A stretch of 64,000 nt of DNA from an uncultured Bdellovibrionales bacterium (GCA_964505305.1 CAZDHE010000001.1:95967-159966); one strand, 5' to 3'; positions 1 through 46,041 are shown, counted from the first letter of the stretch. The notes: generated by a model from the letters alone, not told the origin. Program-made: numbers and translations.

Positions 1-1020
1 ATATATTTCCAAGAAGGCCAGGGCTAAAGAAATGATAACCGGGCCTATAATAAAACCCATTGGTCCGAACAAAGCTATTCCGCCCAAGGTAGCCAAAAAA
101 ACTAGCAAGGGATGAAGACTGGACTGTCCCTCGACCAATTTAGGTCTTAAAATATTGTCCACACTGCTAACAATTATGGCTCCTATAGCAAAAATTACTA
201 TTGCTTGCCAGATGTTTCCAAGAAGGAGTGTAATTAAACCAACGGGAAGCCAAACTAGAACAGCTCCCAGGAGAGGAATGATGGAAATAATTACAGTTAT
301 TATCCCCAACAGAACCGGAGCGGATACTCCAACTATCCAGAAAGTTACGCCCATTAGAAAACCTTGGATTAGGGCTATTATTAAAGTGCCATTAATGGTG
401 GCCTTGGAGATGACTTCGAATCTTTTTAAAAGTTTGTCTTCTTGTTTGTCGGATAGGGGGCTGAGTTGTTTTATCTTTCTTAAAAGAGCATCGCCATCTT
501 TAAAGAAGTAATATAAAGAAAAGAACATTACCGCTATCATAAATAAGAAGTTACTAGTGCTTTCATAGGCACTTTTGATAACGCCAAATACGAATCCCCC
601 CGCGTTTTTGGCTCCGGCGGCAATTTGGGAGGAGTTTACTAAATTTTCATAATTAATTTTGGAAGGCAGAATCCCTGAATTTTCTAAAAAAGGAACTTTA
701 TCAAGAAAAGAAGAGTCTATTTTTACTTCTTTTCCTTGAAAATCTCGAATTATTTTATTGGCTTCAGCTACCGCTAAACTCAAGGTTCCCATAAAGGGCA
801 AGATAATTATAAGAACAATCAGCGAACACATAAACAGGGAGGCCAAACTTTTCCTATTATTCATTTTCCTGCTCACCTTTTTGTAAGTTTTTCGAAAGAG
901 GGTGAACAAAACAAAAGCTAAAAATAAGGCCACCAAGAAAGGCTTGAAAATCAAATAAGAAGCCCATAAAACAACACCCATTAAAATAAAGATAAAAACA
1001 CTGCTCAATTTGTTTTGCAT
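1..1020 (-). CDS. AI-2E family transporter (PerM/UPF0118-like), partial - C-terminal end runs off the window start
   Basis: Reverse-complement translation from the ATG at 1018-1020 gives MQNKLSSVFIFILMGVVLWASYLIFKPF... ending ...IIGPVIISLALAFLEIY at position 1 with no stop. It is polytopic, with a typical AI-2E family C-terminal region. It is absent from the ORF track because no stop lies in the window. Confidence 0.6.
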   Translation of the reverse strand, partial: MQNKLSSVFIFILMGVVLWASYLIFKPFLVALFLAFVLFTLFRKTYKKVSRKMNNRKSLASLFMCSLIVLIIILPFMGTLSLAVAEANKIIRDFQGKEVKIDSSFLDKVPFLENSGILPSKINYENLVNSSQIAAGAKNAGGFVFGVIKSAYESTSNFLFMIAVMFFSLYYFFKDGDALLRKIKQLSPLSDKQEDKLLKRFEVISKATINGTLIIALIQGFLMGVTFWIVGVSAPVLLGIITVIISIIPLLGAVLVWLPVGLITLLLGNIWQAIVIFAIGAIIVSSVDNILRPKLVEGQSSLHPLLVFLATLGGIALFGPMGFIIGPVIISLALAFLEIY

Positions 1021-15921: not shown

Positions 15922-16770
15922 TTACTTAAGAAATTCCAGAGTGGTCTTAATATCCTTTTTTATCTTATCATGCTTGGTCTCCAAATACAAATTGATGCCC
16001 AGTTCCTTAGCTTTTCTTGCTACAGCTTTTAATCCGATTTCGCCGATTTCGCCTTGCCCGATGTGTTCATGGCGATCTATGTGAGAATCTAAAGTGCTCT
16101 TGGAATCGTTAAAATGAATACAGTTTAGCTTTTTTAGTCCTATTTCTCGGTCTATTTCTTGGAAAGTTTCTTGAACCGCCTCCGGCGTTCTCAGGTCTTT
16201 TCCGGCCGCAAAAGCATGGCAAGTGTCAAAACAAAAACCAAGCTCTATTTTCGACTTGCCGGCTTCTTTTAAAAAATAAGAAAATTCCTCCAAATTATCT
16301 CCTATGATGCTTCCGCTTCCGGCGGCAATTTCAAGGCTTAAAACAGCTCTCCCTCGGTAGTCTTGTAGAACTTCCTTCAAGCCTTTAATAACCCTTTTTT
16401 TAATAGCTGGCCAATTTTCGTTTTTGTCCAGATCTTTTGAACTCCCCAAGTGAGTGATTACATAAGGACATTTTATTTGATTGGCTATTTCCAATTCTTC
16501 TTTTAAGACGCGGATAGAGCTTTTGTAAATTTTTTCTTCCCGGCTGGCTAAATTGATATAGTAGGGAGTGTGAATTATATAATCTTTGCCGATATTGAAA
16601 TTGTATTTTTTGCACTCATTAAAAAATTTTTGTTCGTCAATTTCTTTTCTTTTGCCTCCCCGGGGAGAACGGGTGAAAATTTGAAAACATTCGCATCCAA
16701 GAATTTGGGCGTTTCCGGGTGCATTTTCCACTCCGCCGGCAATGGAGACATGGGCACCAACTTTAGTCAT
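15922..16770 (-). CDS. nfo: Endonuclease IV (AP endonuclease family 2)
   Basis: N-terminus MTKVGAHVSIAGG with a conserved His/Asp/Glu metal-site pattern (ITHLGS, CFDTCHAFAAG, LHLND-like). The length is 282 aa. Confidence 0.9.
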   Translation of the reverse strand: MTKVGAHVSIAGGVENAPGNAQILGCECFQIFTRSPRGGKRKEIDEQKFFNECKKYNFNIGKDYIIHTPYYINLASREEKIYKSSIRVLKEELEIANQIKCPYVITHLGSSKDLDKNENWPAIKKRVIKGLKEVLQDYRGRAVLSLEIAAGSGSIIGDNLEEFSYFLKEAGKSKIELGFCFDTCHAFAAGKDLRTPEAVQETFQEIDREIGLKKLNCIHFNDSKSTLDSHIDRHEHIGQGEIGEIGLKAVARKAKELGINLYLETKHDKIKKDIKTTLEFLK

Positions 16771-17218
16771 AATCGGTAAAGGTTAGATTTCGTTATTATA
16801 TCAAAATTATACAATCAAAATAAAAACGCAGCAAGCAAAAAGGCGGTCAAATCAAAGTTTAATTGTTCTTTATTGCAATTTCGTTTTGTTAAACTTGTTA
16901 TTTAGTCTAAAAAATCTCTCTATCTGGAACTATTGGGAAAGATTGAAGCGTAGTTCTTTTTCAGCGGGATTCTTTAATTAGGTTGAACAAGATGAGAAAC
17001 ATTTTAGACATAGGTTTGATTTATGTTATTATTTATGCTATTCTAATTTGAGATTTATTGGGCGGATTCGAAGAAATTTTTCTGAAATCAACAATTTAAA
17101 ACAGCGCCAAGTCCTATTTTAAAGGCTTTTTTCAAATTAATTTTCTATGCCGAGACTTGGTTTTGAAAATAATTCAAAAAAAGAAAATCTCTAAATCTTA
17201 ATTTTTTGTCTTTTAAAG

Positions 17219-20086
17219 ATGGAGCAAGAAAAAATAATTATAAAAGGGGCCGAAGAAAATAATTTAAAAAACGTAAACTTGGAATTGCCCAAAAACAAAA
17301 TTATTGCCATTACAGGTTTATCGGGAAGCGGGAAGAGTTCTTTTGCTTTTGATACCCTGTATTTTGAAGGTTATCGCAGGTATGTGGAAAATCTATCCGG
17401 CAGCGCCAGATTTTTTATGCATTCAGTCAAGAAACCCAAAGTTAAAGAAATCCAAAATTTGTGCCCTACCATTTCAATTAGCCAAAGAAACAACAATCAA
17501 AATCCTCGCTCTACAGTGGGAACTTTAACCGGAATTTATGATTTTTTAAGAGCTCTCTATTTTAGATTTGGAACTTTTTATTGCCCTCATTGCGGCAAAG
17601 AACTCAAGAAAAATACTACGCAGGAGATTTTGGATAAAATTAGTCAACATTCTCAAGGCACCGAGGTGTTAATAGCCTCTCCTGTTACTATTGAGGGTAA
17701 AGGCATTACAGAGGTTTTGAAATCTATTGAAAATGCCGGTTATTCCAAAATAATTCCTGTCTATAAGGATAAGGATAAAAAGACAACGCTCTTGGAACTT
17801 GCTCAAGCAGAGAACTCTCTTGGGGAGAGCGAGCTTAGAGAGCTTTATATTTTAGTAGATAAATTGTATTTGGATAAATCCAGATTAGATAAAGAAAGAA
17901 TTATTGATTCTTTAAAATCAGCCGAAAAATTATCGGAAATTTCTCTCACGCCAAAAAGCCACGTTCGGACTAGTTTATCTGCATCAAAAGATCATGCCGG
18001 AGCAGGAAAAATGGCTTTTATATTTTTTGACCGAAAAGAGAGAGCTTCTTTTAGCCGGTGTTATGTTTGCTCTGGGTGCGGTTATCAAAGAAGAGATTTT
18101 GTCTTCCGGGATTTTTCTTTTAATTCTCCCGAGGGAGCATGTTCTTTGTGCAAAGGAATCGGAGAAGTTGCCAGATTAAACGTGGATAAAGTTATTCCCA
18201 ATCAGAAACTCTCCTTTAAAGAGGGCGCTGTTGAGCCTTGGGTTCGTTTGGGAGGAAGATCGGGCTTCAATAAATTTTCGAAAGGTAAACTGCAAGAGCT
18301 GGCCAATTTCTTGGGTTTTAGCTTAGATGATCCGATTGAAAAATTGACTAAAGAGCAATTCGAGGCTTTCATTTATGGATTTCGAGATGATTCTCGAGGA
18401 ATCTTTTTTGAGGGGGTGGAAAAAGATTTAAACGATCGATATGAAAAGGCGGACTTAACTTCATCTAAAAGGGAATTGGAAAAATATTTTTCTTTTAAAA
18501 TCTGTCCCGATTGCGGAGGGGGTAGACTTAAGCCCGAAGTTTTGAATGCCGAGGTTTGGGGAAAGAAATTTAAAGAAATGACTGAAATGGAAATCGGGAA
18601 TTTATTAGCTTTTTTAAGAGAAAAAACAGGCAGTAATAAAAAAAATAAGCTAAAGGAAAATCAGGCTAAAATTATTGAGGAAATAAATAAAAGACTGGAT
18701 CCCTTGGTGAATGCGGGTGTTGGGTATTTAAGCTTGAACAGGGGTTGCAATAGTCTTTCCGGGGGAGAACTTCAAAGAACCAGGATTGCTTCCCAGCTTT
18801 ATAGCGGTTTAAATGGAGTTTTGTATGTTTTGGATGAACCCACCATCGGACTTCATAGTAGAGACACTCAAAAATTGATAAAAACTTTTCAAAAATTAAA
18901 AAATAACAAAAGTTCTTTGGTGGTGGTAGAGCATGATAAAGAAATAATCGAAAGCGCCGATGAAATTATAGATTTTGGGCCCGGTGCCGGAGAGCAAGGG
19001 GGAGAAGTAATTTTTCAAGGCAATTTCGGGGAACTCAAGAAAGCGGACACTCCAACGGCGGATTTTTTTAACAATAAAATATCTTTTCAATCCAAGAACA
19101 GAAAACCCAAAAAACATCTCGAAATCCAAGGGGCGAGACATAATAACTTGAAAAACATTGATTTGAAGATCCCTCTGGGTTGTTTAGTTTCTTTTGCCGG
19201 AGTATCCGGAAGCGGTAAAAGTTCTTTAGTGGTGGATGTTTTGGCTAAGGCTTTGAGACAAGAGATTCATCAAACAGGAGAAGAGCCGGGAAGTTTTAAT
19301 GAAATCAAAGGTTTGGAAAACATTCAAAAAGCGGTTGCGGTCGATCAATTGTCCATCGGAAGATCTCCACGGTCTAATCCGGCAACCTATACCGGCATTT
19401 TTAGCCATATTCGAGAGTTGTTTGCCCAAACGGAGGCGGCTGAGAAAAAGGGTTTTAATGCCGGCTATTTTTCCTTTAATTTAAAAGGAGGCAGGTGCGA
19501 GCATTGCCAGGGTGAAGGAACAGTTTCCGCGGAGATGCCGCTTTTGGAGGATGTTAGATCTTTGTGTCCTTACTGTAAAGGGACTCGATACAATAAAAAA
19601 ATTCTTGAAATTGAATATCATGGAGTTAATATTGCGAAAGTTTTAGATATGAGTGTTGATTATGCTTATAGGTTTTTTCACTTGAATAAGCTTGTCCAGA
19701 AAAAGTTGAAGGTTTTGAAAGATGTCGGTTTGGGTTATCTTAAATTGGGGCAAAGCGCTAATCGCCTTTCCGGCGGAGAGGCTCAGAGAATAAAGTTGGC
19801 CACCGAATTAATCAGGAAATCAAGAGGAAACTGTTTATACATCCTCGACGAGCCGACCATAGGACTTCATTTTCAAGACATTAAAAAACTTTTAAAAGTT
19901 TTAAATGAATTGGTCGATCAAGGAAATTCAGTTTTTGTCATTGAACACAATACAGAGATGCTCAAGGCTAGCGATTGGATTATAGAAATGGGTCCCGGAG
20001 GAGGTGAAAAAGGAGGGGAGGTTATTTTCGAAGGAACGCCGAAAGAGCTTTCCGCAACAAACACCGAAACAGGCAGGGTTTTGTGA
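17219..20086 (+). CDS. uvrA: Excinuclease ABC subunit A
   Basis: 955 aa with two ABC ATPase modules (GLSGSGKSS; GVSGSGKSS), LSGGE signatures and Zn-finger CxxC pairs. Its full length is conserved. Confidence 0.95.
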   Translation: MEQEKIIIKGAEENNLKNVNLELPKNKIIAITGLSGSGKSSFAFDTLYFEGYRRYVENLSGSARFFMHSVKKPKVKEIQNLCPTISISQRNNNQNPRSTVGTLTGIYDFLRALYFRFGTFYCPHCGKELKKNTTQEILDKISQHSQGTEVLIASPVTIEGKGITEVLKSIENAGYSKIIPVYKDKDKKTTLLELAQAENSLGESELRELYILVDKLYLDKSRLDKERIIDSLKSAEKLSEISLTPKSHVRTSLSASKDHAGAGKMAFIFFDRKERASFSRCYVCSGCGYQRRDFVFRDFSFNSPEGACSLCKGIGEVARLNVDKVIPNQKLSFKEGAVEPWVRLGGRSGFNKFSKGKLQELANFLGFSLDDPIEKLTKEQFEAFIYGFRDDSRGIFFEGVEKDLNDRYEKADLTSSKRELEKYFSFKICPDCGGGRLKPEVLNAEVWGKKFKEMTEMEIGNLLAFLREKTGSNKKNKLKENQAKIIEEINKRLDPLVNAGVGYLSLNRGCNSLSGGELQRTRIASQLYSGLNGVLYVLDEPTIGLHSRDTQKLIKTFQKLKNNKSSLVVVEHDKEIIESADEIIDFGPGAGEQGGEVIFQGNFGELKKADTPTADFFNNKISFQSKNRKPKKHLEIQGARHNNLKNIDLKIPLGCLVSFAGVSGSGKSSLVVDVLAKALRQEIHQTGEEPGSFNEIKGLENIQKAVAVDQLSIGRSPRSNPATYTGIFSHIRELFAQTEAAEKKGFNAGYFSFNLKGGRCEHCQGEGTVSAEMPLLEDVRSLCPYCKGTRYNKKILEIEYHGVNIAKVLDMSVDYAYRFFHLNKLVQKKLKVLKDVGLGYLKLGQSANRLSGGEAQRIKLATELIRKSRGNCLYILDEPTIGLHFQDIKKLLKVLNELVDQGNSVFVIEHNTEMLKASDWIIEMGPGGGEKGGEVIFEGTPKELSATNTETGRVL

Positions 20087-38085: not shown

Positions 38086-38789
38086 TGAAAATTCTCGGTG
38101 TTCAAGTAGATGAATATAGTAAAAATGAAATCCGGCAAAAGGTGGAGGCTTCTTTGAGGGGTGAAGAATTTTTGACAATAGCGACCCTCAATCCGGAAAT
38201 GCTTTTGTTTGCTGAAAAAAATTCTTCTTATGCTAAAATACTAAACAGCTTTGATTTGAAAATAGTTGACGGCTTTGGCTTGCAATTGGCCGGGCTTTTC
38301 AAGTTCCATCGAGAAATCGCTCGTTTTCCCGGATCCGACTTAGCCGGGTTTATTTTAAAAAAATCGCTCAAAGAGAACCGAAGAGTCGCCTTGATAAATA
38401 AAAAAGGCGGTCTTAGCAACAAGAGGGATTTAGAGTCTAAGTTTGGCGCTATTCAAGGAGTGGATGTTTTTGATGTAGAGATGAATTCAAACTACTCGCA
38501 ATTTGCCATGCAGCACCTGTTAAAAACAGAAATTTTACTGGTCGGTCTCGGGGCGCCCGAACAGGAAAAATTTATTCAGGCGGCTAAAGACAAAATCCCC
38601 AATCTCAAACTCGCTATCGGCGTCGGCGGAACTTTGGACTTCTGGAGCGGAAAACAAAAAAGAGCCCCCCGGTGGATGCGAAAAATCGGCTTGGAGTGGC
38701 TCTATAGATTCTGTCGCCAACCCAAAAGATATCGAAGAATATTCAACGCAATAATCATTTTTCCCTTCAAAGTTTTTATAAAAAACTGA
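38085..38789 (+). CDS. WecB/TagA/CpsF family glycosyltransferase (GT26)
   Basis: MKILGVQVDEYSKNEIRQKV...TIATLNPEMLLFA...DLKIVDGFGL...LLVGLGAPEQEKF is the family core. It overlaps the thpR stop by ATGA. Confidence 0.85.
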   Translation: MKILGVQVDEYSKNEIRQKVEASLRGEEFLTIATLNPEMLLFAEKNSSYAKILNSFDLKIVDGFGLQLAGLFKFHREIARFPGSDLAGFILKKSLKENRRVALINKKGGLSNKRDLESKFGAIQGVDVFDVEMNSNYSQFAMQHLLKTEILLVGLGAPEQEKFIQAAKDKIPNLKLAIGVGGTLDFWSGKQKRAPRWMRKIGLEWLYRFCRQPKRYRRIFNAIIIFPFKVFIKN

Positions 38790-38981
38790 TAATGTTCAAA
38801 AATTATTATTCTAAGCCCGGTTTTAAAGCCACGGTTTAAGAGTTTTCTATATTTAAGCCTTTAAAGACTATGCCATAGTGAAGCTGGAGATAGAAACCCT
38901 TGTAAAATAAAAAGCTTAATGAGCGCTAAATTTAGAAGACAAAAGGAGAAAGCTATTTCTTAAAATAAAAGCTGAGTTTTT

Positions 38982-39707
38982 ATGAAACAAAGATTTTGGG
39001 AAATAGATTTTTTAAGAGGAGCGGCTGTTGTGATGATGGTCATTTTTCACTTTGCTTGGTATCTTGATTTTTTTACCGGTCTGGAAATTTCTTTAAAAAG
39101 CTTTTTTTGGGAAATTTTTCGAATTATCACAGTCTCCGCATTTTTGTTTTTGGTTGGGATTTCTCTTTATATAAGCTCCCATAGTAAGGATGGGGTCTTT
39201 CTCAAATTTGCCAAGAGGGGTTTATACATTTTTTCGTTGGGGCTTGGGATTACTTTATTTACCAAGATATTTTTTCCGGACCATTACGTTTTCTTCGGCA
39301 TTTTGCATTTAATCGGAGTTTCCATTTTTTTAGCTTACTTCTTTTTGGATTTTAAATTTATAAACTTATTTTTCGGTTTTGCCTTTTTTGCTCTAGGAGG
39401 GTTGTTGAAAGCGCTCTCTCTTGATATTTCCTGGCTGTATTTCTTGGGGTTTTCTTCAAGCAATATATCTACTTTGGATTTTTATCCAATTATACCCTGG
39501 TTTGGAGTAGTTTTGTGGGGAATATTTGCCGCTAAAATTCTTTACAAAGACAGAGTCAGACAATTCAAACTGCTTGATTTGGGTGACAATTTCTTGATAA
39601 AAAAATTTTGCTTCTTGGGTAGAAATTCTTTGTTGATATATTTCCTTCACCATCCGGTGTTGACATTACTGGTTTACCTTATTCAGTTTTGGCTTAGATC
39701 GGGTTAA
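38982..39707 (+). CDS. DUF1624/acyltransferase-3-like integral membrane protein
   Basis: The N-terminal REIDFLRGAAVVMMVIFHF motif is typical of the family. There are about 8 TM helices. Confidence 0.5.
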   Translation: MKQRFWEIDFLRGAAVVMMVIFHFAWYLDFFTGLEISLKSFFWEIFRIITVSAFLFLVGISLYISSHSKDGVFLKFAKRGLYIFSLGLGITLFTKIFFPDHYVFFGILHLIGVSIFLAYFFLDFKFINLFFGFAFFALGGLLKALSLDISWLYFLGFSSSNISTLDFYPIIPWFGVVLWGIFAAKILYKDRVRQFKLLDLGDNFLIKKFCFLGRNSLLIYFLHHPVLTLLVYLIQFWLRSG

Positions 39708-39817
39708 GCAGATTTTCTTTTTACGGGGTTAAAAAAATGTTATGCTTATAGTGAGCTCTAAAAAAGGGATGGGTGAACTTCCAATAGGGAAAGGATATTA
39801 AAATAAAAATAATTTTT

Positions 39818-40228
39818 ATGAAAACTATCAGGGTTTTGATTTTGGAGGATGATTTGAAGGCTTGCCAGGCGATATTGAAGGTTCTGGAGGAGGTGGAGTT
39901 TGAGGCGATAAAAAAGGGGGTTGAACTTTCGGCGCTGGTTTTTCAGGAGCGTGTTTTTGTGGAGGAATTTGTCAACCAAAGGGAGTGGACCGGCGAAGAG
40001 ATTGTTTTTCTGGATCGAGAAGCGGACAAGGGTCAAGCCGGAAATTTTCACGATTTGGACTTTGAGAAATTTGACAAAGACAGAATCATCTCCATCTCTT
40101 CCGTTCCGGATTTCAACGAAGATGCCAGGAAACGGGGAATTAATCGGGTGGTTCAGAAAGATTTTACTAAGATGGATGAGTTTGGGGAAAAGATTGAAAG
40201 GGAGCTGCGGGTCATATTAGGTTTATAA
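39818..40228 (+). CDS. Atypical receiver(REC)-like single-domain protein
   Basis: VLILEDD, IVFLDRE (candidate phospho-Asp), ISISS and VVQKDF follow REC topology, but the domain is divergent. Confidence 0.5.
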   Translation: MKTIRVLILEDDLKACQAILKVLEEVEFEAIKKGVELSALVFQERVFVEEFVNQREWTGEEIVFLDREADKGQAGNFHDLDFEKFDKDRIISISSVPDFNEDARKRGINRVVQKDFTKMDEFGEKIERELRVILGL

Positions 40229-40297
40229 TACAATCCTTCAATAAGCGCTATTTAACAAAAAAGGGTGTGGCAATATAAGAAAATAAACAATAATTAA

Positions 40298-40600
40298 AAG
40301 GAAGCAATAAAAGAAAAAATAGAAAACATCAATGTTCCCAATGAAGATATGGGAAATTGGATTAACACTCTGTATGAAGCCGGTTTTTCTCAAGAGGAAA
40401 TTGACAAGGCGATGGTGATGCTCAATGATCAGCATGCTGAGCAAAAATAGGAAGTGTACGAGAAAGAAATTGAAAAATTGGCCGGGGATGAGTTCAAAAA
40501 AATTAGAAGGAAGATTAAATTGGAAACCGGGCGCTCGCTGAATTTGCAACAAAGAGAAACCTTGTGGGATTTGGTGAAAACCAAACCAAAACAAAAGAAT
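40298..40600 (+). pseudogene. Coding-like frame without a start codon, interrupted by an in-frame TAG (possible gene remnant or two tiny ORFs)
   Basis: The frame reads KEAIKEKIENINVPNEDMGNWINTLYEAGFSQEEIDKAMVMLNDQHAEQK*EVYEKEIEKLAGDEFKKIRRKIKLETGRSLNLQQRETLWDLVKTKPKQKN*. There is no ATG upstream. The only ORF the track calls here is a low-complexity antisense one. Confidence 0.25.
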
Positions 40601-40620
40601 TAAGAAGATTGTAAGTGTTT

Positions 40621-40759
40621 AAATAATATTATAACTCCCATATTCACATTTCAAAGGTCTCATTGATATTACCATGGTTCCATCTTAGCGTCTCAAAAAG
40701 TTATTGCACTTTTGCTCATTGAAGGGTATTATTTAAGCAATTGGCGCGAATATTTAATT
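40621..40759 (+). repeat. 139-bp direct repeat copy 1 (promoter plus leader of Cys-rich paralog 1)
   Basis: 138 of 139 positions are identical to 42443-42581 (one c/t difference). It ends 18 nt before the start codon. Confidence 0.85.
40704..40732 (+). promoter_or_regulatory. Sigma-70-type promoter: -35 TTGCAC, 17-bp spacer, -10 TATTAT
   Basis: Read directly: ttgcac-tttttgctcattgaaggg-tattat. It lies 46 nt upstream of the ATG at 40778. Confidence 0.5.
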
Positions 40760-40777
40760 TATAAATAAAATTAAAAT

Positions 40778-42448
40778 ATGGAAACTAAAAATGAAAAAAG
40801 ATGGAAAAAAATATTAAAATGGCCTATTACCGGAAAAGCTTATTGGTTTATAGGAGTAAAGATTGGATTTTTGCTCGTTTTCTTGTTTTTTCTTATTGCT
40901 GGTTTAGTAGTAGTTTTTCAATTATTAAATGGTAATGAGTTTCCTTCTGGTATGGTGGTTTTTCATCATCACAGGAACTATTTTCTGGAGCCAGTGATAA
41001 GAAATGTGTTTTGGGTTGATTCCACCTTTTCTATCGACAGGGGAAGAATTTGTAATTATCTTGTTTTTCCCAACGCAGTAGGTTTAACTTTTTCGTTTTT
41101 GTTTGTAATGATACCACTCACATTTATTGGATCATTACTGGATATTTTTAAAAGAAAAAAGTTTGTACCATTTGCATTAATTTCCTTCCTTGTTATATCT
41201 GCAGTTTCCTACTATTGCATTATCGAATTTTCCAACTTTCCATTTAGATGCAATCTCATGTTTGACAATGTACATAAGAGTAGTGGAATTTCTGCCAGAA
41301 GCAGCTGCTTAATCAGTGAGTTGAAATCAAGTGAAGAAAACAAAGACCCATCCTACTGTGAAAAAATGACAAATAGTTATAAAGTAGAATGCTATGATTT
41401 AATTTTAGAGAAAATGAATAAAAAGAATTGTCAAGATTTAAGCTTTTGTAATTCATTTCCAAAAGAATACAAGAATAGATTTACTACTTGGAAATATCAA
41501 ACTGATTGCTTGATAAGCTGCGCATTGATAAATAATGATAAATCAATATGCAAAAAACTTGATTCGGAAGAAGAAGTAGAGGGTTGCGAAAACAAAGTGG
41601 ATATTGACAACAAGGTAGAGCCCTATTTGAGCGAAACTGAAAAGCAAAGCGTCGATGAAGATGCATTGGAAAGATATAAAGAGCAATTTGAAACCTGTAT
41701 TTATGTGCATAGTGGTAAATTTGCAGATGAAACAACAGATAAAATAGAAAAAGGCTCAGAGGAATGCCTTCAAGAAAGAAGATTAACACACAATCGAAAT
41801 TGCTACATATTCTTTAAAGACAAGTGTTACTTAGATATAGTAGAAATAAATGGCAATGTTCTTAATTGCAAAAAAATATACAACTCAAATAAAAAGGATG
41901 AATGTTATTACAAAGCATCATTGAGTTTAAATGATTATAAATCTTGCGATAATATCAAAGATAAAAAAATGAGAATGCATTGTAAAGAAGAAATTAAAAA
42001 AGGCGAAAACGAAAAATGGAAAAATTACAAACATAAATCAGGAGTAAGCTTTAAATATCCTGCGAATTGGCATGTTAAGTTTGATCCTGTTGTTAACAGA
42101 ATAATAATAGAATCCGAAAAGAGAAACGGAATTGATTGGACAAGGCCTGGTATGTTGTGTGCTAGTAGAGTGCGCTTTGGAACCAAAGACAATGAGGGGT
42201 TGTCTTTAAATGAATATATTGAAAAATATGAAAAAGATGCAAAAAACATTAAGAGAGTTAAAGTTGACGGAAAAAATGCTATAAGGTTTATACCAAGGCC
42301 AGACTCCTCATACGAAATCTACATCTCACTGGAAGATTCAAAATTGTTTTATCTTGAGTCATCTTTAGAAAAAGGCCATGAAAAACATGAAGAATTGTTT
42401 AATAAAATGATGCAAAGCATTGAAATCAATGAATCACCATTGAAATAA
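40778..42448 (+). CDS. Cys-rich repeat membrane protein, paralog 1 (3 N-terminal TM helices, Cys-rich ectodomain, conserved C-terminal domain)
   Basis: 556 aa. The N-terminus is KWPITGKAYWFIGVKIG. The ectodomain holds about 30 Cys in repeated C-x-C/CY spacing. The C-terminus is SFKYPANWHV...FNKMMQSIEI, shared with paralog 2. Confidence 0.6.
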   Translation: METKNEKRWKKILKWPITGKAYWFIGVKIGFLLVFLFFLIAGLVVVFQLLNGNEFPSGMVVFHHHRNYFLEPVIRNVFWVDSTFSIDRGRICNYLVFPNAVGLTFSFLFVMIPLTFIGSLLDIFKRKKFVPFALISFLVISAVSYYCIIEFSNFPFRCNLMFDNVHKSSGISARSSCLISELKSSEENKDPSYCEKMTNSYKVECYDLILEKMNKKNCQDLSFCNSFPKEYKNRFTTWKYQTDCLISCALINNDKSICKKLDSEEEVEGCENKVDIDNKVEPYLSETEKQSVDEDALERYKEQFETCIYVHSGKFADETTDKIEKGSEECLQERRLTHNRNCYIFFKDKCYLDIVEINGNVLNCKKIYNSNKKDECYYKASLSLNDYKSCDNIKDKKMRMHCKEEIKKGENEKWKNYKHKSGVSFKYPANWHVKFDPVVNRIIIESEKRNGIDWTRPGMLCASRVRFGTKDNEGLSLNEYIEKYEKDAKNIKRVKVDGKNAIRFIPRPDSSYEIYISLEDSKLFYLESSLEKGHEKHEELFNKMMQSIEINESPLK

Positions 42449-42581
42449 TATTATAACTCCCATATTCACATTTCAAAGGTCTCATTGATATTACCATGGT
42501 TCCATCTTAGCGTCTCAAAAAGTTATTGCACTTTTGCTCATTGAAGGGTATTATTTAAGCAATTGGTGCGAATATTTAATT
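42443..42581 (+). repeat. 139-bp direct repeat copy 2 (promoter plus leader of Cys-rich paralog 2)
   Basis: See copy 1. It overlaps the last codons of paralog 1. Confidence 0.85.
42526..42554 (+). promoter_or_regulatory. Sigma-70-type promoter (duplicate of 40704-40732)
   Basis: An identical -35 TTGCAC, 17-bp spacer and -10 TATTAT precede the ATG at 42595. Confidence 0.5.
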
Positions 42582-42594
42582 AATAAACACATAA

Positions 42595-44073
42595 ATGAAA
42601 AACAAAAAAATAAATTTCTGGAGAAGTGTATGGAATTGGCTTTTAAAGGGAGGCTACTCTTGGCTTATTGGGGCAAAGATTGGATTGGTTTCTTTTTTTG
42701 TCATTTTACCTGTTTTCTTTTATTGCATTGCCTTTCCGATAGAAGTGCTTGTTACAAACACCCTGGGTTTTGATGTTTCAAATTGTCACATGTTTTTATG
42801 TGTCCCAACTATTTTAGGTGTATTTTTTTTACTTTTTTTTCTTATTCTTGCAGGAGCAATTGTAGGGTCTTTTTTTGATGTCATCAAAAAAGTAAATTTT
42901 TTGACTTCATCCTTTTTCATTTTAATTGGAGTTATTATGGTTTTATACTACTTTGTTGTTAATTTCTCGACACCTCCAAAAAAGTGCGAATTCCTCTTTG
43001 ATTTCTCGCCCGGCTTTCCTAGAAGTGAGTGTTTTTTGAATAATTTGAAGTATAAAGAAAAAAGCAATAGTCTTTCATATTGTGATAAAATCAAAATCAA
43101 ATCTAGTAAATGCGAAGATTTGATTATTAGTAACGTTAATGAGGAGCAATGTCAGGAACTAAATTTTTGTAATCAATTTTCCAACAAGGATGCGTGTTTA
43201 GAAAAATGCATGCTACATAAACAAGAGTTAAAAAATTGCATGATTCATCTTACAGAAAAATCAAGCGAAAAAGTAAAAAATAATATTTCTAAATGCTTAC
43301 ACTCCTCTGAAGTTGAGAAGTTTGAGAAGTGTTATGAACAGAGCAAAGACATTTGTTATTCAAAGTTGGCAAAACAAATATGGAAAATTGAAAATTGCAA
43401 TAAAATTGAAGCCTTAAACAAAAAAGAGGAATGCTACCACGATTTAGCCTATCAAAAAAAGGATATCAATATTTGCCATAAGATTAATAAATCTAGTCTG
43501 AAAAATTCTTGTTATTTATTAGTTGCCAGCAAGAAAAAAAACTCCAAACCTTGTCAAAATATTAACAAGGATCAAACGAAAAAAAAGTGCATAAAAATTG
43601 CGAATAGGGATGATATTGATGCTTGGCAAACTCATGATGTTTTTAAAAAGGGCAACTTAAATCTCTCCCTCGAATTGCCTTTGTTTTGGAAGTTGGTTGA
43701 TAACAAAACAAACAAGGAAATCATACCAAAGGAACAAGTAAATTGTGTTAGCCAAGAAGGTGCGGACGAGACATGTATAGACAAAATCAAGCTAAAATAT
43801 TATGAAAATAGAAACAATCTGAATTTGGAGACATTTTTCCGAAAGAAGTTTGGTTGGAAAAAAGGGACTAATTTCAAAAATGTTAACACAATAAACGTAA
43901 ATGATTATTATATGTCTAATGCTACTTTAATATATCCTCATGATGGAGAAGAGGATCCATCCGTGTGGATAGGCATAGCATCAGGTTATTATAAAATATC
44001 GGGAAACTATTTAGAGAGATACCAAGAAGAAATTTTTGATAAGATTGTTCAAAGCATCGAAATCAGTAAATAA
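42595..44073 (+). CDS. Cys-rich repeat membrane protein, paralog 2
   Basis: 492 aa. The N-terminus is WNWLLKGGYSWLIGAKIG and there are 3 TM helices. The ectodomain has about 30 Cys in about 22-aa repeats (ENCNKIEALNKKEECYHDLAYQKKDINICHKI...). The C-terminus is IVQSIEISK. Confidence 0.6.
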   Translation: MKNKKINFWRSVWNWLLKGGYSWLIGAKIGLVSFFVILPVFFYCIAFPIEVLVTNTLGFDVSNCHMFLCVPTILGVFFLLFFLILAGAIVGSFFDVIKKVNFLTSSFFILIGVIMVLYYFVVNFSTPPKKCEFLFDFSPGFPRSECFLNNLKYKEKSNSLSYCDKIKIKSSKCEDLIISNVNEEQCQELNFCNQFSNKDACLEKCMLHKQELKNCMIHLTEKSSEKVKNNISKCLHSSEVEKFEKCYEQSKDICYSKLAKQIWKIENCNKIEALNKKEECYHDLAYQKKDINICHKINKSSLKNSCYLLVASKKKNSKPCQNINKDQTKKKCIKIANRDDIDAWQTHDVFKKGNLNLSLELPLFWKLVDNKTNKEIIPKEQVNCVSQEGADETCIDKIKLKYYENRNNLNLETFFRKKFGWKKGTNFKNVNTINVNDYYMSNATLIYPHDGEEDPSVWIGIASGYYKISGNYLERYQEEIFDKIVQSIEISK

Positions 44074-44104
44074 CTAGAAAAATAACATTTTAATCAAATT
44101 TTAT

Positions 44105-44494
44105 ATGAACTCACTAATTTTTATTTTTGGGTTTGGCGTGGGGGTGGCTGTGGCTTGGTTTTTTATGCGGGAGGCTATGGAGAGGCACAGGGTGGAGGTG
44201 GATCGGATGGAAAGGGAGAAGCAAGAGCAGGAAGAGGTTGGGAGCGGGCTGGAAGGATTTAACGAGGAAGTCCAGAGGAGGATCGAGGGGCGCAAAGCTA
44301 AAATTATCCATGAGATTCAGCGGGCCGGCGCTGTGCAAAACCAGGAGGTGGCGGATATGCTGGATGTCTCTTCCCGCACTGCATTGCGGTATTTATCGGA
44401 GTTGGAGAAAGAGGGAAAAATTCGGCAAGTGGAAAAACTCGGCCGGAATGTTCGGTATGTGCTGAAAAAGGATGCTCTAAACCCGCCAAACTAG
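44105..44494 (+). CDS. Membrane-tethered winged-helix (DeoR-type HTH) DNA-binding protein
   Basis: The N-terminal TM helix is LIFIFGFGVGVAVAWFFM, followed by a charged coiled-coil-like segment. The C-terminal wHTH is IIHEIQRAGAVQNQEVADMLDVSSRTALRYLSELEKEGKIRQV...RNVRYVL. GC content is strongly elevated compared with the rest of the window. Confidence 0.55.
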   Translation: MNSLIFIFGFGVGVAVAWFFMREAMERHRVEVDRMEREKQEQEEVGSGLEGFNEEVQRRIEGRKAKIIHEIQRAGAVQNQEVADMLDVSSRTALRYLSELEKEGKIRQVEKLGRNVRYVLKKDALNPPN

Positions 44495-44514
44495 TGTTTG
44501 TCGGGTTTAATTTT
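44479..44514 (+). terminator. Palindromic terminator overlapping the stop codon of the wHTH gene
   Basis: aaacccgccaaac-tagt-gtttgtcgggttt is a 13-bp stem with one mismatch, followed by aatttt. The TAG stop lies in the loop. Confidence 0.5.
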
Positions 44515-44550
44515 AAGGCGGGAGGATTAAATATTTAAACTGGACAAACT

Positions 44551-46041
44551 ATGAAAATGCTAACTAAGTCAGATTTTCTGAAGTTTTGGCAGTGTCCGAA
44601 GGCGCTGTGGCTTAGTGTGTATAGAAAAGACTTAAAACCGGAGGTTAGCGAAAACCAACAGGCAATTTTTGAGGCCGGTTATGAAGTGGAGCAGTATGCT
44701 TACCGGTTGTTTCCCAAAGGCGAGAAGGTTTCCGAGGAGGAAAATAGTGATATTGGACACGAGACAAAGAAAACAAGGGAAATGATTGAAAACAAAAAAC
44801 CGGCTCTTTTCCAACCGGTCTTTTCTGTCGGCGGGTTGTTTTGCCGGTGTGATATTTTGGAGTATGACAAAGGCGGAGAGGCTTGGAATATCTATGAAGT
44901 GAAAAGCTCTACCAAGGCGCAAAAAATTCATTATTATGATTTGGCATTCCAGAAAATTTGCTTGGAAGAAGCGGGGTTGAGGGTCGGAGAGTTGAAGGTG
45001 ATTCATATCAATAAAAATTATGTTAAGTATGGCTCAATCGAGCCGGAGAAATTGCTTGAAACCGAGGACGTAACTGAAAAGGTTTTAAAATTGGAGGAGG
45101 AAACAAGAAAAATGATTCAGGAAGCGTTTGAAGTTCTTAACAAAAAGCAAGAACCGAAAATTCCTATTCTTCGCCAGTGCTGCAATCCTTATCCGTGCGA
45201 TTTTGTGGATTATTGTCTGGGAGAAGTTGAGGTTGACTCTATTTATTCCATCGGCAGCGCTTTGGGCGTTAGAAAATTAAAAGAATTGCTGAGCGGGGAG
45301 ATTTTCAAAGTTCAAGATATCCCGGATAAGATGCTTGATAAAAAGAAGCTTTGGCTGCATAAAGAGCTGGTTAAAAACGGCGGTGTTTATAAAGAAAAAG
45401 AAAATATCAAAAAGGAATTAAGCAAATTGGAATACCCGCTTTATTTCTTGGACTATGAAACTTCTGGGCCGGCTATTCCAATGTTTGACGGTTACAAGCC
45501 ATACCAGCGAATAATTTTCCAATATTCTTTGCATATTCAAAGGACGCCGGGCGGGGAATTGGAGCATCATGAATTTCTCTCAAAAGAAGCGAAAGACCCG
45601 GCTTGGGAGCTTTCCCGAAGCTTGCGGGAGAAGATTGGCGAGAAAGGTAGTTTTATTGTTTGGTATGCTCCTTTTGAAAAAGGATGCAATCAAGAAATAG
45701 GGGAGAGATATCCGGAATTCAAGGAGTTTTATCAAAATATCAATAATAGAATATATGATCTGATGGATGTTTTTAAAAATAGCTACTATGCTCATAAGGA
45801 ATTTCGAGCCAGCGCATCTTTGAAAAATGTTTTGCCGGTGATGGCGCCGGAACTTTCCTACAAGGACTTGGATATTCAAGAGGGCGGCACCGCTTCCAAT
45901 CGGTGGGCAAGAATGATACAATCAGACACAAGCGGAGAAGAAAAGGAGAGAATATATCAAGATCTTTTGAAATACTGCGAGCTGGACACCTTGGCAATGG
46001 TGAGGATTTTGGAGGAATTGAGAAAGGAAATTAAAGAGTAA
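44551..46041 (+). CDS. DUF2779-family protein: N-terminal Cas4/RecB-like Fe-S PD-(D/E)xK nuclease domain plus C-terminal DEDD-like (RNase H-fold) domain
   Basis: The N-terminus LTKSDFLKFWQCPKALWL carries the first Cys. D (CDILEYD) and E-V-K (NIYEVKSS) form the PD-(D/E)xK core. The Q/Y motif is HYYDLAFQ. The Cys cluster is CCNPYPCDFVDYC. The C-terminal half has YFLDYETSG...IIFQYSLHI, like DnaQ-type motif I. Confidence 0.65.
   Translation: MKMLTKSDFLKFWQCPKALWLSVYRKDLKPEVSENQQAIFEAGYEVEQYAYRLFPKGEKVSEEENSDIGHETKKTREMIENKKPALFQPVFSVGGLFCRCDILEYDKGGEAWNIYEVKSSTKAQKIHYYDLAFQKICLEEAGLRVGELKVIHINKNYVKYGSIEPEKLLETEDVTEKVLKLEEETRKMIQEAFEVLNKKQEPKIPILRQCCNPYPCDFVDYCLGEVEVDSIYSIGSALGVRKLKELLSGEIFKVQDIPDKMLDKKKLWLHKELVKNGGVYKEKENIKKELSKLEYPLYFLDYETSGPAIPMFDGYKPYQRIIFQYSLHIQRTPGGELEHHEFLSKEAKDPAWELSRSLREKIGEKGSFIVWYAPFEKGCNQEIGERYPEFKEFYQNINNRIYDLMDVFKNSYYAHKEFRASASLKNVLPVMAPELSYKDLDIQEGGTASNRWARMIQSDTSGEEKERIYQDLLKYCELDTLAMVRILEELRKEIKE

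Follow-up and report, generated by a model that had tools for sequence, protein, structure and literature searches.

We analysed a 64-kb stretch of DNA (the window, whose coordinates are used throughout) from contig JBMCHA010000001.1 (170,628 bp) of a Patescibacteria metagenome-assembled genome (MAG), GCA_048619615.1, and within it two adjacent genes, g1 and g2, each of which stands behind a copy of the same 145-nucleotide (nt) upstream element, here termed E. The identities of the genes that flank the pair, 78-89%, place the source close to two MAGs of Candidatus Moraniibacteriota. Below we set out the genes, the element, the proteins and the corresponding locus in relatives, and tentatively trace the near-identity of the two copies of E to recent recombination.

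Two divergent genes behind one upstream element

Gene g1 occupies positions 40778..42448 on the + strand and, as called from its open reading frame (ORF), encodes 556 amino acids (aa); g2 follows it at 42595..44073, also on the + strand, and encodes 492 aa. The two proteins align end to end at 24% identity (BLASTP, E 8e-32) and are paralogues, as an earlier note on this DNA had proposed in describing two adjacent membrane-protein genes with a common architecture; their coding DNA is unrelated, unlike the element upstream of it. The N-terminal motif that the note had seen in both is real (W9, W15, G19, W23, I25-G26, K28-I29-G30), and the C-terminal QSIEI is present in both proteins. In the homologue searches, g1 and g2 themselves were present only in this one sample. 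At 31%, the G+C contents of g1 and g2 are among the lowest in the window, where the mean is 37.7% (sd 4.0%). The public annotation starts g2 at about 43240 and gives it 277 aa, omitting the membrane anchor and half of the cysteine region (42595-43239); the 492-aa ORF is backed by a gene call in the Logan assembly and by homology to g1 and to the proteins P0179, P0012 and P0014 described below.

Copy A of E (40621..40765, + strand, 145 nt) is 98.6% identical to copy B (42443..42587, + strand) and fills nearly the whole intergenic region 5' of g1: it begins 15 nt past the stop of a pseudogene of a conserved 98-aa gene and ends 12 nt before the g1 ATG. Copy B, 5' of g2, overlaps the end of g1: the 6 nt with which it opens, AAATAA, are the last sense codon and the stop of that gene. 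It ends 7 nt before the g2 ATG. The likeness is perfect over the first 124 nt (40621-40744 and 42443-42566); there follow a single-nucleotide difference at 40745 (C/T), 14 identical nt, a second difference at 40760 (T/A) and 5 identical nt up to 40765, beyond which similarity is lost, identity being about 50% up to the ATG. The element of 139 bp with one difference reported in the earlier note is exactly 40621-40759. Its wider observation, that the whole upstream non-coding region is nearly identical, unlike the coding DNA, can now be put as 145 nt at 98.6% against 24% protein identity.

E is the only direct repeat of at least 40 nt in the window, and in the 83 kb of contig searched there is no third copy and no further paralogue. 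The note had allowed that the upstream sequence might prove to be a common genome-wide repeat; within 83 kb it has two copies only, each 5' of a paralogue. A 24-mer of E is absent from the GTDB representative genomes and the JGI metagenomes, collections that do not contain the source assembly, and a blastn search with the complete locus found nothing in phage and plasmid collections. A further comparison is with ASO1 (GCA_034522495.1), a Candidatus Moraniibacteriota MAG in which an orthologue of g2 is preceded by an upstream region of 119 bp: this region has no detectable similarity to E and no motif in common with it, and carries its own TGnTATAAT element. A search for E-like sequence or k-mers upstream of the homologues in ASO1 and GCA_002328565.1 returned chance-level A+T-rich words only. 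The note had suggested mapping the element across related genomes and metagenomes; in these relatives and collections E has no counterpart. A match of 15 out of 16 positions between the 5' end of E and the sequence just upstream of the start of a winged helix-turn-helix (wHTH) gene in ASO1 is suggestive in its position, but it is at chance level (E 0.91) and is not relied on.

The arrangement was recovered in a second assembly. An independent k=31 assembly of run SRR11308339 (Logan) contains three contigs, corresponding to 38755-40650, 40715-42472 and 42537-44865 with 0 mismatches, which break inside the repeat, exactly 30 nt into it from each side. Left flank-E, E-g1-E and E-g2-right flank are therefore all present in a separate assembly, and every junction is independently supported.

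Each copy of E includes a putative sigma-70-type promoter. That of copy A (40704..40732, + strand) consists of TTGCAC at 40704-09, a 17-nt spacer and TATTAT at 40727-32; that of copy B, on the same strand, has its -35 hexamer at 42526-31 and its -10 hexamer at 42549-54. The earlier note called this promoter textbook. The two hexamers and the spacer are there as described, but the -35 hexamer agrees with TTGACA at only 3 of 6 positions, sharing just the TTG, and the site as a whole, at 8/12, falls below the threshold of a consensus scan that reported two rival 9/12 sites in or overlapping E. Since this DNA is rich in A+T and each strand has a background of about 1.6 pairs of the form TTGnnn-16..18-TAnnnT per kb, it is the position of the promoter that makes it plausible, and its sequence is not textbook. 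The repeated motif pointed out in the note, CTCATTGA, is indeed found two times in each copy (in copy A at 40659 and 40715, giving the spacing CTCATTGA-N48-CTCATTGA), the second occurrence (40715-22) lying within the promoter spacer; an 8-mer found twice in 145 nt is, however, only weakly unusual.

Towards the genes, E ends in A+T-rich sequence of the kind that typically precedes start codons in this genome. A Shine-Dalgarno-like motif precedes 2 of 52 genes (the long ORFs of the window), most being preceded by A+T-rich sequence of the type 'TTAAAT / AAATTAAAAT', so that translation initiation in this lineage appears to be independent of Shine-Dalgarno pairing. On the simplest reading E would be the ordinary promoter and untranslated-leader region of such a gene, present twice, with a promoter activity that we infer from its sequence.

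Modules of the encoded proteins

Word-indexed searches, with g1 or with an N-terminal alignment, gave almost nothing, and an exhaustive profile search with the g1+g2 alignment was needed. It yielded 1,317 cluster representatives at E<=1e-3, and since these fall into three groups, the g1 and g2 proteins are modular. In g1 a predicted anchor of three transmembrane helices (about aa 19-152) is followed by a cysteine-rich helical ectodomain (aa 158-402) and a PsbP-like C-terminal domain (about aa 405-550); the corresponding modules of g2 are the anchor at aa 22-124, a putative cysteine-repeat solenoid at aa 131-332 and a PsbP-fold domain at aa 340-492.

Matches to the N-terminal membrane domain are confined to three other clusters: P0007/P0179, P0012 and P0014. 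Among the residues conserved in the anchor are W23, G26, K28, G30, G118-S119, D122, P155 and C158. Three transmembrane helices per protein, as proposed earlier, are supported by hydropathy and by the AlphaFold2 (AF2) model of g2, in which the long helices span residues 22-55, 70-97 and 102-124. Loop charges, hydropathy and the model together fit a topology with the N-terminus inside and the C-terminus outside, which would leave the rest of the protein outside the membrane; g1 and g2 accordingly hold their place as one family of membrane-anchored extracytoplasmic proteins. Judging from the matches, the anchor is lineage-restricted and the family limited to Moraniibacteriota-like Patescibacteria.

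The cysteine region had been described as an ectodomain with about 30 cysteines in repeats of about 20-25 aa. Both figures need correction: the proteins contain 21 and 23 cysteines in total, 19 and 20 of them in the ectodomains, and the repeat unit is 26 aa long (C-x13-C-x11). There are three canonical units in each protein, at aa 254, 280 and 306 in g2, plus degenerate ones. The consensus, CYxx[VIL]AxxxxDxS[IL]CxKIxDxxx[KR]Dx, is very regular, with C-x13-C and C-x11-C spacings in alternation. Across 183 fetched proteins we counted 993 units, and up to 69 cysteines in one protein; many members of the repeat family (P0003-P0178) have lipoprotein-like N-termini. The hits with taxon-specific names belong to Pacearchaeota, Altiarchaeota, Aenigmarchaeota, Micrarchaeota and Burarchaeum, a further one is labelled only 'bacterium HR35', and the named hits are annotated as 'hypothetical' or after another domain only. 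No Pfam or NCBIfam model matches the repeat in g1, g2 or strong members of the repeat family, nor are TPR or SEL1 Pfam models matched by the cysteine region of these proteins, and we found no account of the repeat or of the g1/g2 family in the literature. Sequence matches of this breadth indicate that the 26-aa cysteine repeat is a large, widespread and unannotated family, mainly of DPANN and Altiarchaeota archaea and also of some candidate-phyla bacteria.

In the AF2 model the cysteine region of g2 is all-helical, with a predicted local distance difference test (pLDDT) score of 88-98, and its best Foldseek match in the PDB has an E of only 0.24. The region is thus modelled as a TPR-like alpha-solenoid of a repeat type so far unnamed, presumably stapled by disulfides, as the spacing of the cysteines and the extracytoplasmic location suggest. 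TPR and Sel1-like solenoids include the disulfide-containing Helicobacter cysteine-rich proteins (Hcp); the unit here differs from theirs in having 26 aa with C-x13-C-x11 spacing, as against 34 aa in TPR and 36-44 aa in Sel1-like repeats (SLR).

In the C-terminal domain, g1 reaches 26.6 bits (E 7e-06) against the Pfam model PsbP_2 (PF18933), slightly under the gathering cut-off of 27 bits, and g2 gives no match. Of 11 members of the family that were aligned, 8 match this model, the lowest E being 5.7e-08, and P0073, at 30.1 bits, lies above the cut-off. When g2 was modelled at full length, AF2 gave a poor result outside the repeat region, with a pLDDT of 30-50 in the C-terminal domain; modelled again with a domain alignment, the domain reached a pLDDT of 89.7 and a predicted TM-score (pTM) of 0.82. 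Foldseek matched this second model in the PDB to PsbP, CyanoP and PsbP-like subunits, then to LpqN, Apa, MTC28 and DcrB, with probability 1.0 for these PsbP-type matches and 0.95 for DcrB; TM-scores were mostly 0.53-0.59, and about 0.4-0.45 for one NDH PsbP-like subunit, Apa and DcrB. The model indicates that the C-terminal 150 aa of g1 and g2 are a PsbP-type alpha/beta sandwich, PF18933-like. The bacterial examples of the PsbP-Mog1 fold (LpqN, Apa and MTC28 of M. tuberculosis, DcrB of Salmonella) are likewise extracytoplasmic and envelope-tethered, and the family of the C-terminal domain is common as a membrane-tethered domain in Parcubacteria-type genomes. What sets g1 and g2 apart from PsbP and PF18933 proteins is a conserved cysteine pair and fusion to the anchor and the cysteine-repeat solenoid; unlike PsbP, they have no photosystem context.

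The earlier statement that no known family is recognisable consequently needs dividing. It stands for the cysteine repeat in that no Pfam or NCBIfam model covers it; it fails in that the repeat belongs to a large if unannotated family, and in that the C-terminal domain has a PsbP fold. The profile hidden Markov model, AF2 and Foldseek searches that the earlier note had called for matched no well-characterised family of known function, and left its view of the proteins unrefuted.

The locus in related genomes

The two genes stand among neighbours that are well conserved in ASO1. To the left lies a gene of 136 aa (39818..40228, + strand), 89% identical to a 131-aa gene of ASO1; its product, conserved and uncharacterised, has a receiver-like N-terminus (MKTIRVLILEDD...) and no Pfam or NCBIfam match. 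Next comes the pseudogene of the conserved 98-aa gene (40307..40605, + strand), in which the start ATG has become ATA (40307-09) and a Pro codon has given rise to an in-frame TAG (40448-50), both lesions being evident in the DNA alignment to the intact ASO1 orthologue. The intact gene stands directly upstream of the surface-protein gene in ASO1; because the pseudogene keeps 66% aa identity to it, with no frameshift, the decay must be recent.

To the right is the wHTH gene (44105..44494, + strand; 129 aa), whose product combines an N-terminal transmembrane helix (residues 1-21) with a winged-helix DNA-binding domain (HTH_24, 1.1e-08) and has almost no extracellular part. This protein, a candidate regulator, is 84% and 78% identical to its counterparts in two relatives from the Moraniibacteriota. 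The order surface-protein gene then wHTH gene is conserved in two genomes, where the genes lie 31 and 93 nt apart, and a scan found no terminator-like hairpin between g1, g2 and the wHTH gene. The G+C content of the wHTH gene is 51.5% (the window mean and sd are given above); given the 78-84% conservation of the protein in relatives, this probably reflects amino-acid content and not transfer. A metagenome scan with a wHTH profile returned one distant, uninformative locus only. Beyond the wHTH gene lies a gene of the DUF2779 / RecB-like nuclease family (44551..46041, + strand; PF11074, 6e-40), 79% identical in ASO1.

The block in ASO1 runs 131-aa gene, 98-aa gene, P0179, wHTH, DUF2779: between flanking genes that are 89%, 84% and 79% identical to those of the window there is a single homologue, P0179, of 751 aa. 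Its alignment with g2 is confined to the anchor (28%) and the PsbP-like domain (45%), the middle being unrelated. The bit scores are 147+73 for g2 and P0179, 115-123 for g1 and g2, and 57+27 for g1 and P0179. By these scores g2 is the positional orthologue of P0179 and g1 branched off before the genomes separated: g2 is closer to P0179 than to g1, and g1 is farthest from P0179, so that the split of g1 from g2 predates that of the genomes.

A second relative, BLK6-3.bin.191 (Candidatus Moraniibacteriota), has no member of the family: its wHTH gene (78%) directly follows an acyltransferase gene, the homologue of 38982-39707, and it lacks the 136-aa and 98-aa genes as well as a surface-protein gene. 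The 4.4-kb segment is therefore an insertion or deletion between close relatives. P0012 and P0014, which belong to another lineage, share 61-68% identity at either end and differ in a central insertion of about 240 aa. With flanks 79-89% identical in ASO1 around one highly divergent homologue, and with no homologue in BLK6-3.bin.191, the locus is hypervariable in sequence and in copy number. These comparisons indicate that the family evolves by module shuffling and rapid divergence in conserved surroundings, with 0, 1 or 2 copies at the site, and the divergent homologue of ASO1 and the absence from BLK6-3.bin.191 lend comparative support to the note's description of a diversifying cell-surface family.

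Some observations concern the wider surroundings. P0012, a single-copy gene (GCA_002328565.1, L003 6923-9200), lies 260 bp from a divergent tyrosine recombinase gene; no repeat was found at that locus, and no recombinase near g1 and g2. In the window, long ORFs are all on the - strand left of about 16770-17220 and nearly all on the + strand from 17.2 to 60.8 kb, and the GC skew turns clearly positive near 18 kb, which could mark a replication origin.

Recombination at the locus and the role of the proteins

The split between g1 and g2 predates the divergence from ASO1, yet E differs at 2 of 145 positions; the identity of the two copies must therefore be recent. The time since the split from ASO1 has been long enough for flanking proteins to come to differ by 11-21% and for the upstream region to change beyond recognition. 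A recent event, whether duplication or gene conversion, is required in place of slow divergence, in agreement with the alternatives named in the earlier note. Our preferred but tentative reading is that the copies of E are nearly identical through recent recombination, with the stacking of alleles as the favoured route, and not through selection on a special RNA or the arrival of a mobile repeat. An [E-g1] unit, the second allele of the locus, would have come from a closely related genome and been placed upstream of the resident [E-g2], either in an unequal crossover or through illegitimate recombination facilitated by homology; the joint would lie at the AAATAA that occurs both around the stops of these genes and where E begins. 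Both genes would then stand behind one and the same promoter and leader, to be expressed and regulated alike, and the cell would thereby display two different binding surfaces.

Such stacking accounts for the differences in copy number, for the position of g1 as outgroup, for the presence of AAATAA at three boundaries (at the start of copy A, where the g1 stop meets copy B, and at the g2 stop), and for the location of the differences next to the genes: both lie within the last, gene-proximal 21 nt of E, as expected of an allele boundary. Homology-facilitated illegitimate recombination and unequal crossover make tandem units in transformable bacteria, and the order AAATAA-E-g1-AAATAA-E-g2-AAATAA, with its one long homologous anchor, resembles their products; it differs in that the genes are not identical, so that two alleles are needed, and in that the 6-nt microhomology is common in this genome.

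Several points weigh against this reading. AAATAA is the commonest gene ending in the window (6 of 52 genes), and the argument from microhomology is therefore weak. No genome with g1 alone at the locus was found, and the donor allele is hypothetical. The tandem order comes from a short-read MAG, and a k=31 graph cannot by itself link the 5' and 3' halves of E. The -35/-10 match of 8/12 on which the shared promoter would depend is statistically unremarkable, and the adhesive or binding role is suggested by analogy of fold only. Finally, conversion between old resident paralogues, combined with a loss in ASO1, fits the same facts, including the clustering of differences at the 3' edge.

This last alternative is the most serious, and we regard it as possible, though on balance doubtful. 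On this account g1 and g2 are old resident tandem paralogues in concerted evolution, each of which had a homologous leader of its own, a recent conversion tract of at least 124 bp (40621-40744) has made their upstream regions alike, and ASO1 has lost its copy of the g1 type. Three features suit it well: the 124 perfect nucleotides followed by stepwise decay (40745, 40760, then about 50%) look like the end of a tract within older homology; E begins just where any possible homology ends, at the g1 stop; and the split between g1 and g2 is older than the divergence from ASO1. To be set against these are the extra loss that it requires in ASO1 in addition to the absence from BLK6-3.bin.191, its need for prior similarity between the upstream regions, when those of the family differ even between close relatives, and the lack of any third copy or donor within 83 kb.

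We consider it improbable that purifying selection on a functional E, as a structured leader or riboswitch, a small RNA gene or an operator array for the wHTH protein, has kept the copies alike. The CTCATTGA direct repeat with its second copy in the promoter spacer, and a wHTH gene conserved immediately downstream in two genomes, are what such an array would lead one to expect. However, selection alone rarely keeps 124 of 124 non-coding bases beside saturated coding DNA, the element is absent from the genome, metagenome, phage and plasmid collections named above, and the upstream region of the ASO1 orthologue shares no motif with E even though the wHTH proteins are 84% identical. A structured or small RNA was rejected on two grounds: E has no Rfam match at the gathering score, with matches at chance level only at E<=1, and on both strands its fold energies are no better than those of shuffled sequences (z +1.0 and 0.0).

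An assembly artefact, in which a single-copy gene would appear in tandem because the alleles of two strains had been linked across a shared flank, is very unlikely. In its favour, the assembly is a short-read MAG, the 145-nt repeat is about one read length, and a k=31 graph collapses the core of E; but the 3' end of g1 enters E without a branch to the wHTH flank, and does so in the independent assembly also (L002, 30 nt into E), and an allelic bubble needs a common downstream flank, which g1 and g2 lack. 

Least credible of all is the chance landing of a small mobile or dispersed repeat, whether a miniature inverted-repeat transposable element (MITE), a promoter-carrying insertion or an attC-type site: the 5' boundary is sharp and the element lineage-specific, but the 83 kb contain just two copies, which share their orientation and their placement with respect to the start codon of a paralogue. 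The 3' edge, unlike the 5' one, passes gradually into the region of translation initiation, terminal inverted repeats are lacking, no transposase or integrase is encoded nearby, and as DNA the element has no hairpin potential, its fold of -5.9 kcal/mol being weaker than those of shuffles (z +1.2). Hypermutation of the diversity-generating retroelement type was dropped as an explanation of the divergence of the genes, which spans their whole length, with no reverse transcriptase or template repeat nearby.

As to function, the predicted extracellular architecture, the fast modular evolution and the variation in copy number point to g1 and g2 as candidate exposed binding proteins, which might serve as the adhesin, receptor decoy or host interface that the note had proposed. 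A different role, that of extracytoplasmic co-sensors which signal through the adjacent single-pass wHTH protein in the manner of ToxR/ToxS, seems to us improbable. In its favour are the near-absence of an extracellular part from the wHTH protein, with its transmembrane helix at residues 1-21, and the conserved order of surface-protein and wHTH genes in two genomes. Against it, BLK6-3.bin.191 and a metagenome contig of more distant origin carry the wHTH gene without such a neighbour, and hypervariability or a changing copy number is not usual for sensors.

The Mycoplasma vlp, vsp and mpl and the Helicobacter bab/sab genes are families of variable surface proteins with conserved 5' regions, and the present locus resembles them in its adjacent divergent surface-protein genes, its near-identical upstream regions and the reduced genome in which it lies; such a shared 5' region can serve both as a recombination substrate and as a common expression signal. 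It departs from that type in several respects. The proteins of g1 and g2 lack a lipoprotein signal and use an anchor of three transmembrane helices, the conserved block stops before the start codon and so does not include a signal peptide, and there are only two genes, with nothing to suggest on/off switching. The equipment of a switching device is likewise missing: E has no homopolymer tract longer than 5 nt and no flanking inverted repeats, there is no invertible promoter, and no recombinase is encoded within +/-10 kb, on which grounds a phase-variable locus of the vlp/vsp/mpl type was rejected. The locus is rather a lineage-specific case of a familiar theme, that of variable surface genes sharing a 5' region by recombination; the combination of anchor, cysteine solenoid and PsbP fold is uncharacterised.

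A bolder proposal, to which we would give little weight, joins the element and the repeat: E would be the 'docking arm' of a population-level cassette system in which surface-protein alleles are swapped or stacked at a single chromosomal site by way of the E sequence that they share, and the cysteine repeat a host-contact module. The protein would join a disulfide-stapled helical repeat, known also from DPANN archaea, to a PsbP-fold domain. If that were true, naturally transformable, host-attached Patescibacteria would carry 0, 1, 2 or more co-expressed variants, and the 26-aa repeat would be a previously unnamed host-contact module of ultra-small episymbionts in both domains.

Taken by itself the duplicated promoter region is a modest finding, a datable mark of recent recombination that could be used in population metagenomics to see how loci of this kind are remodelled. 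Two by-products of its analysis are the most useful: a syntenic locus that is hypervariable, and a family of 26-aa cysteine repeats, so far unannotated, which deserves a name and a structure. To our knowledge, very little has been established of how Patescibacteria recognise host cells and hold on to them. The locus offers a concrete candidate for that interface in a membrane-anchored protein with a cysteine-stapled solenoid and a PsbP fold, and its evolution, far faster than that of its neighbours and accompanied by variation in copy number, is the signature expected of a protein at the host interface or otherwise exposed to the environment.

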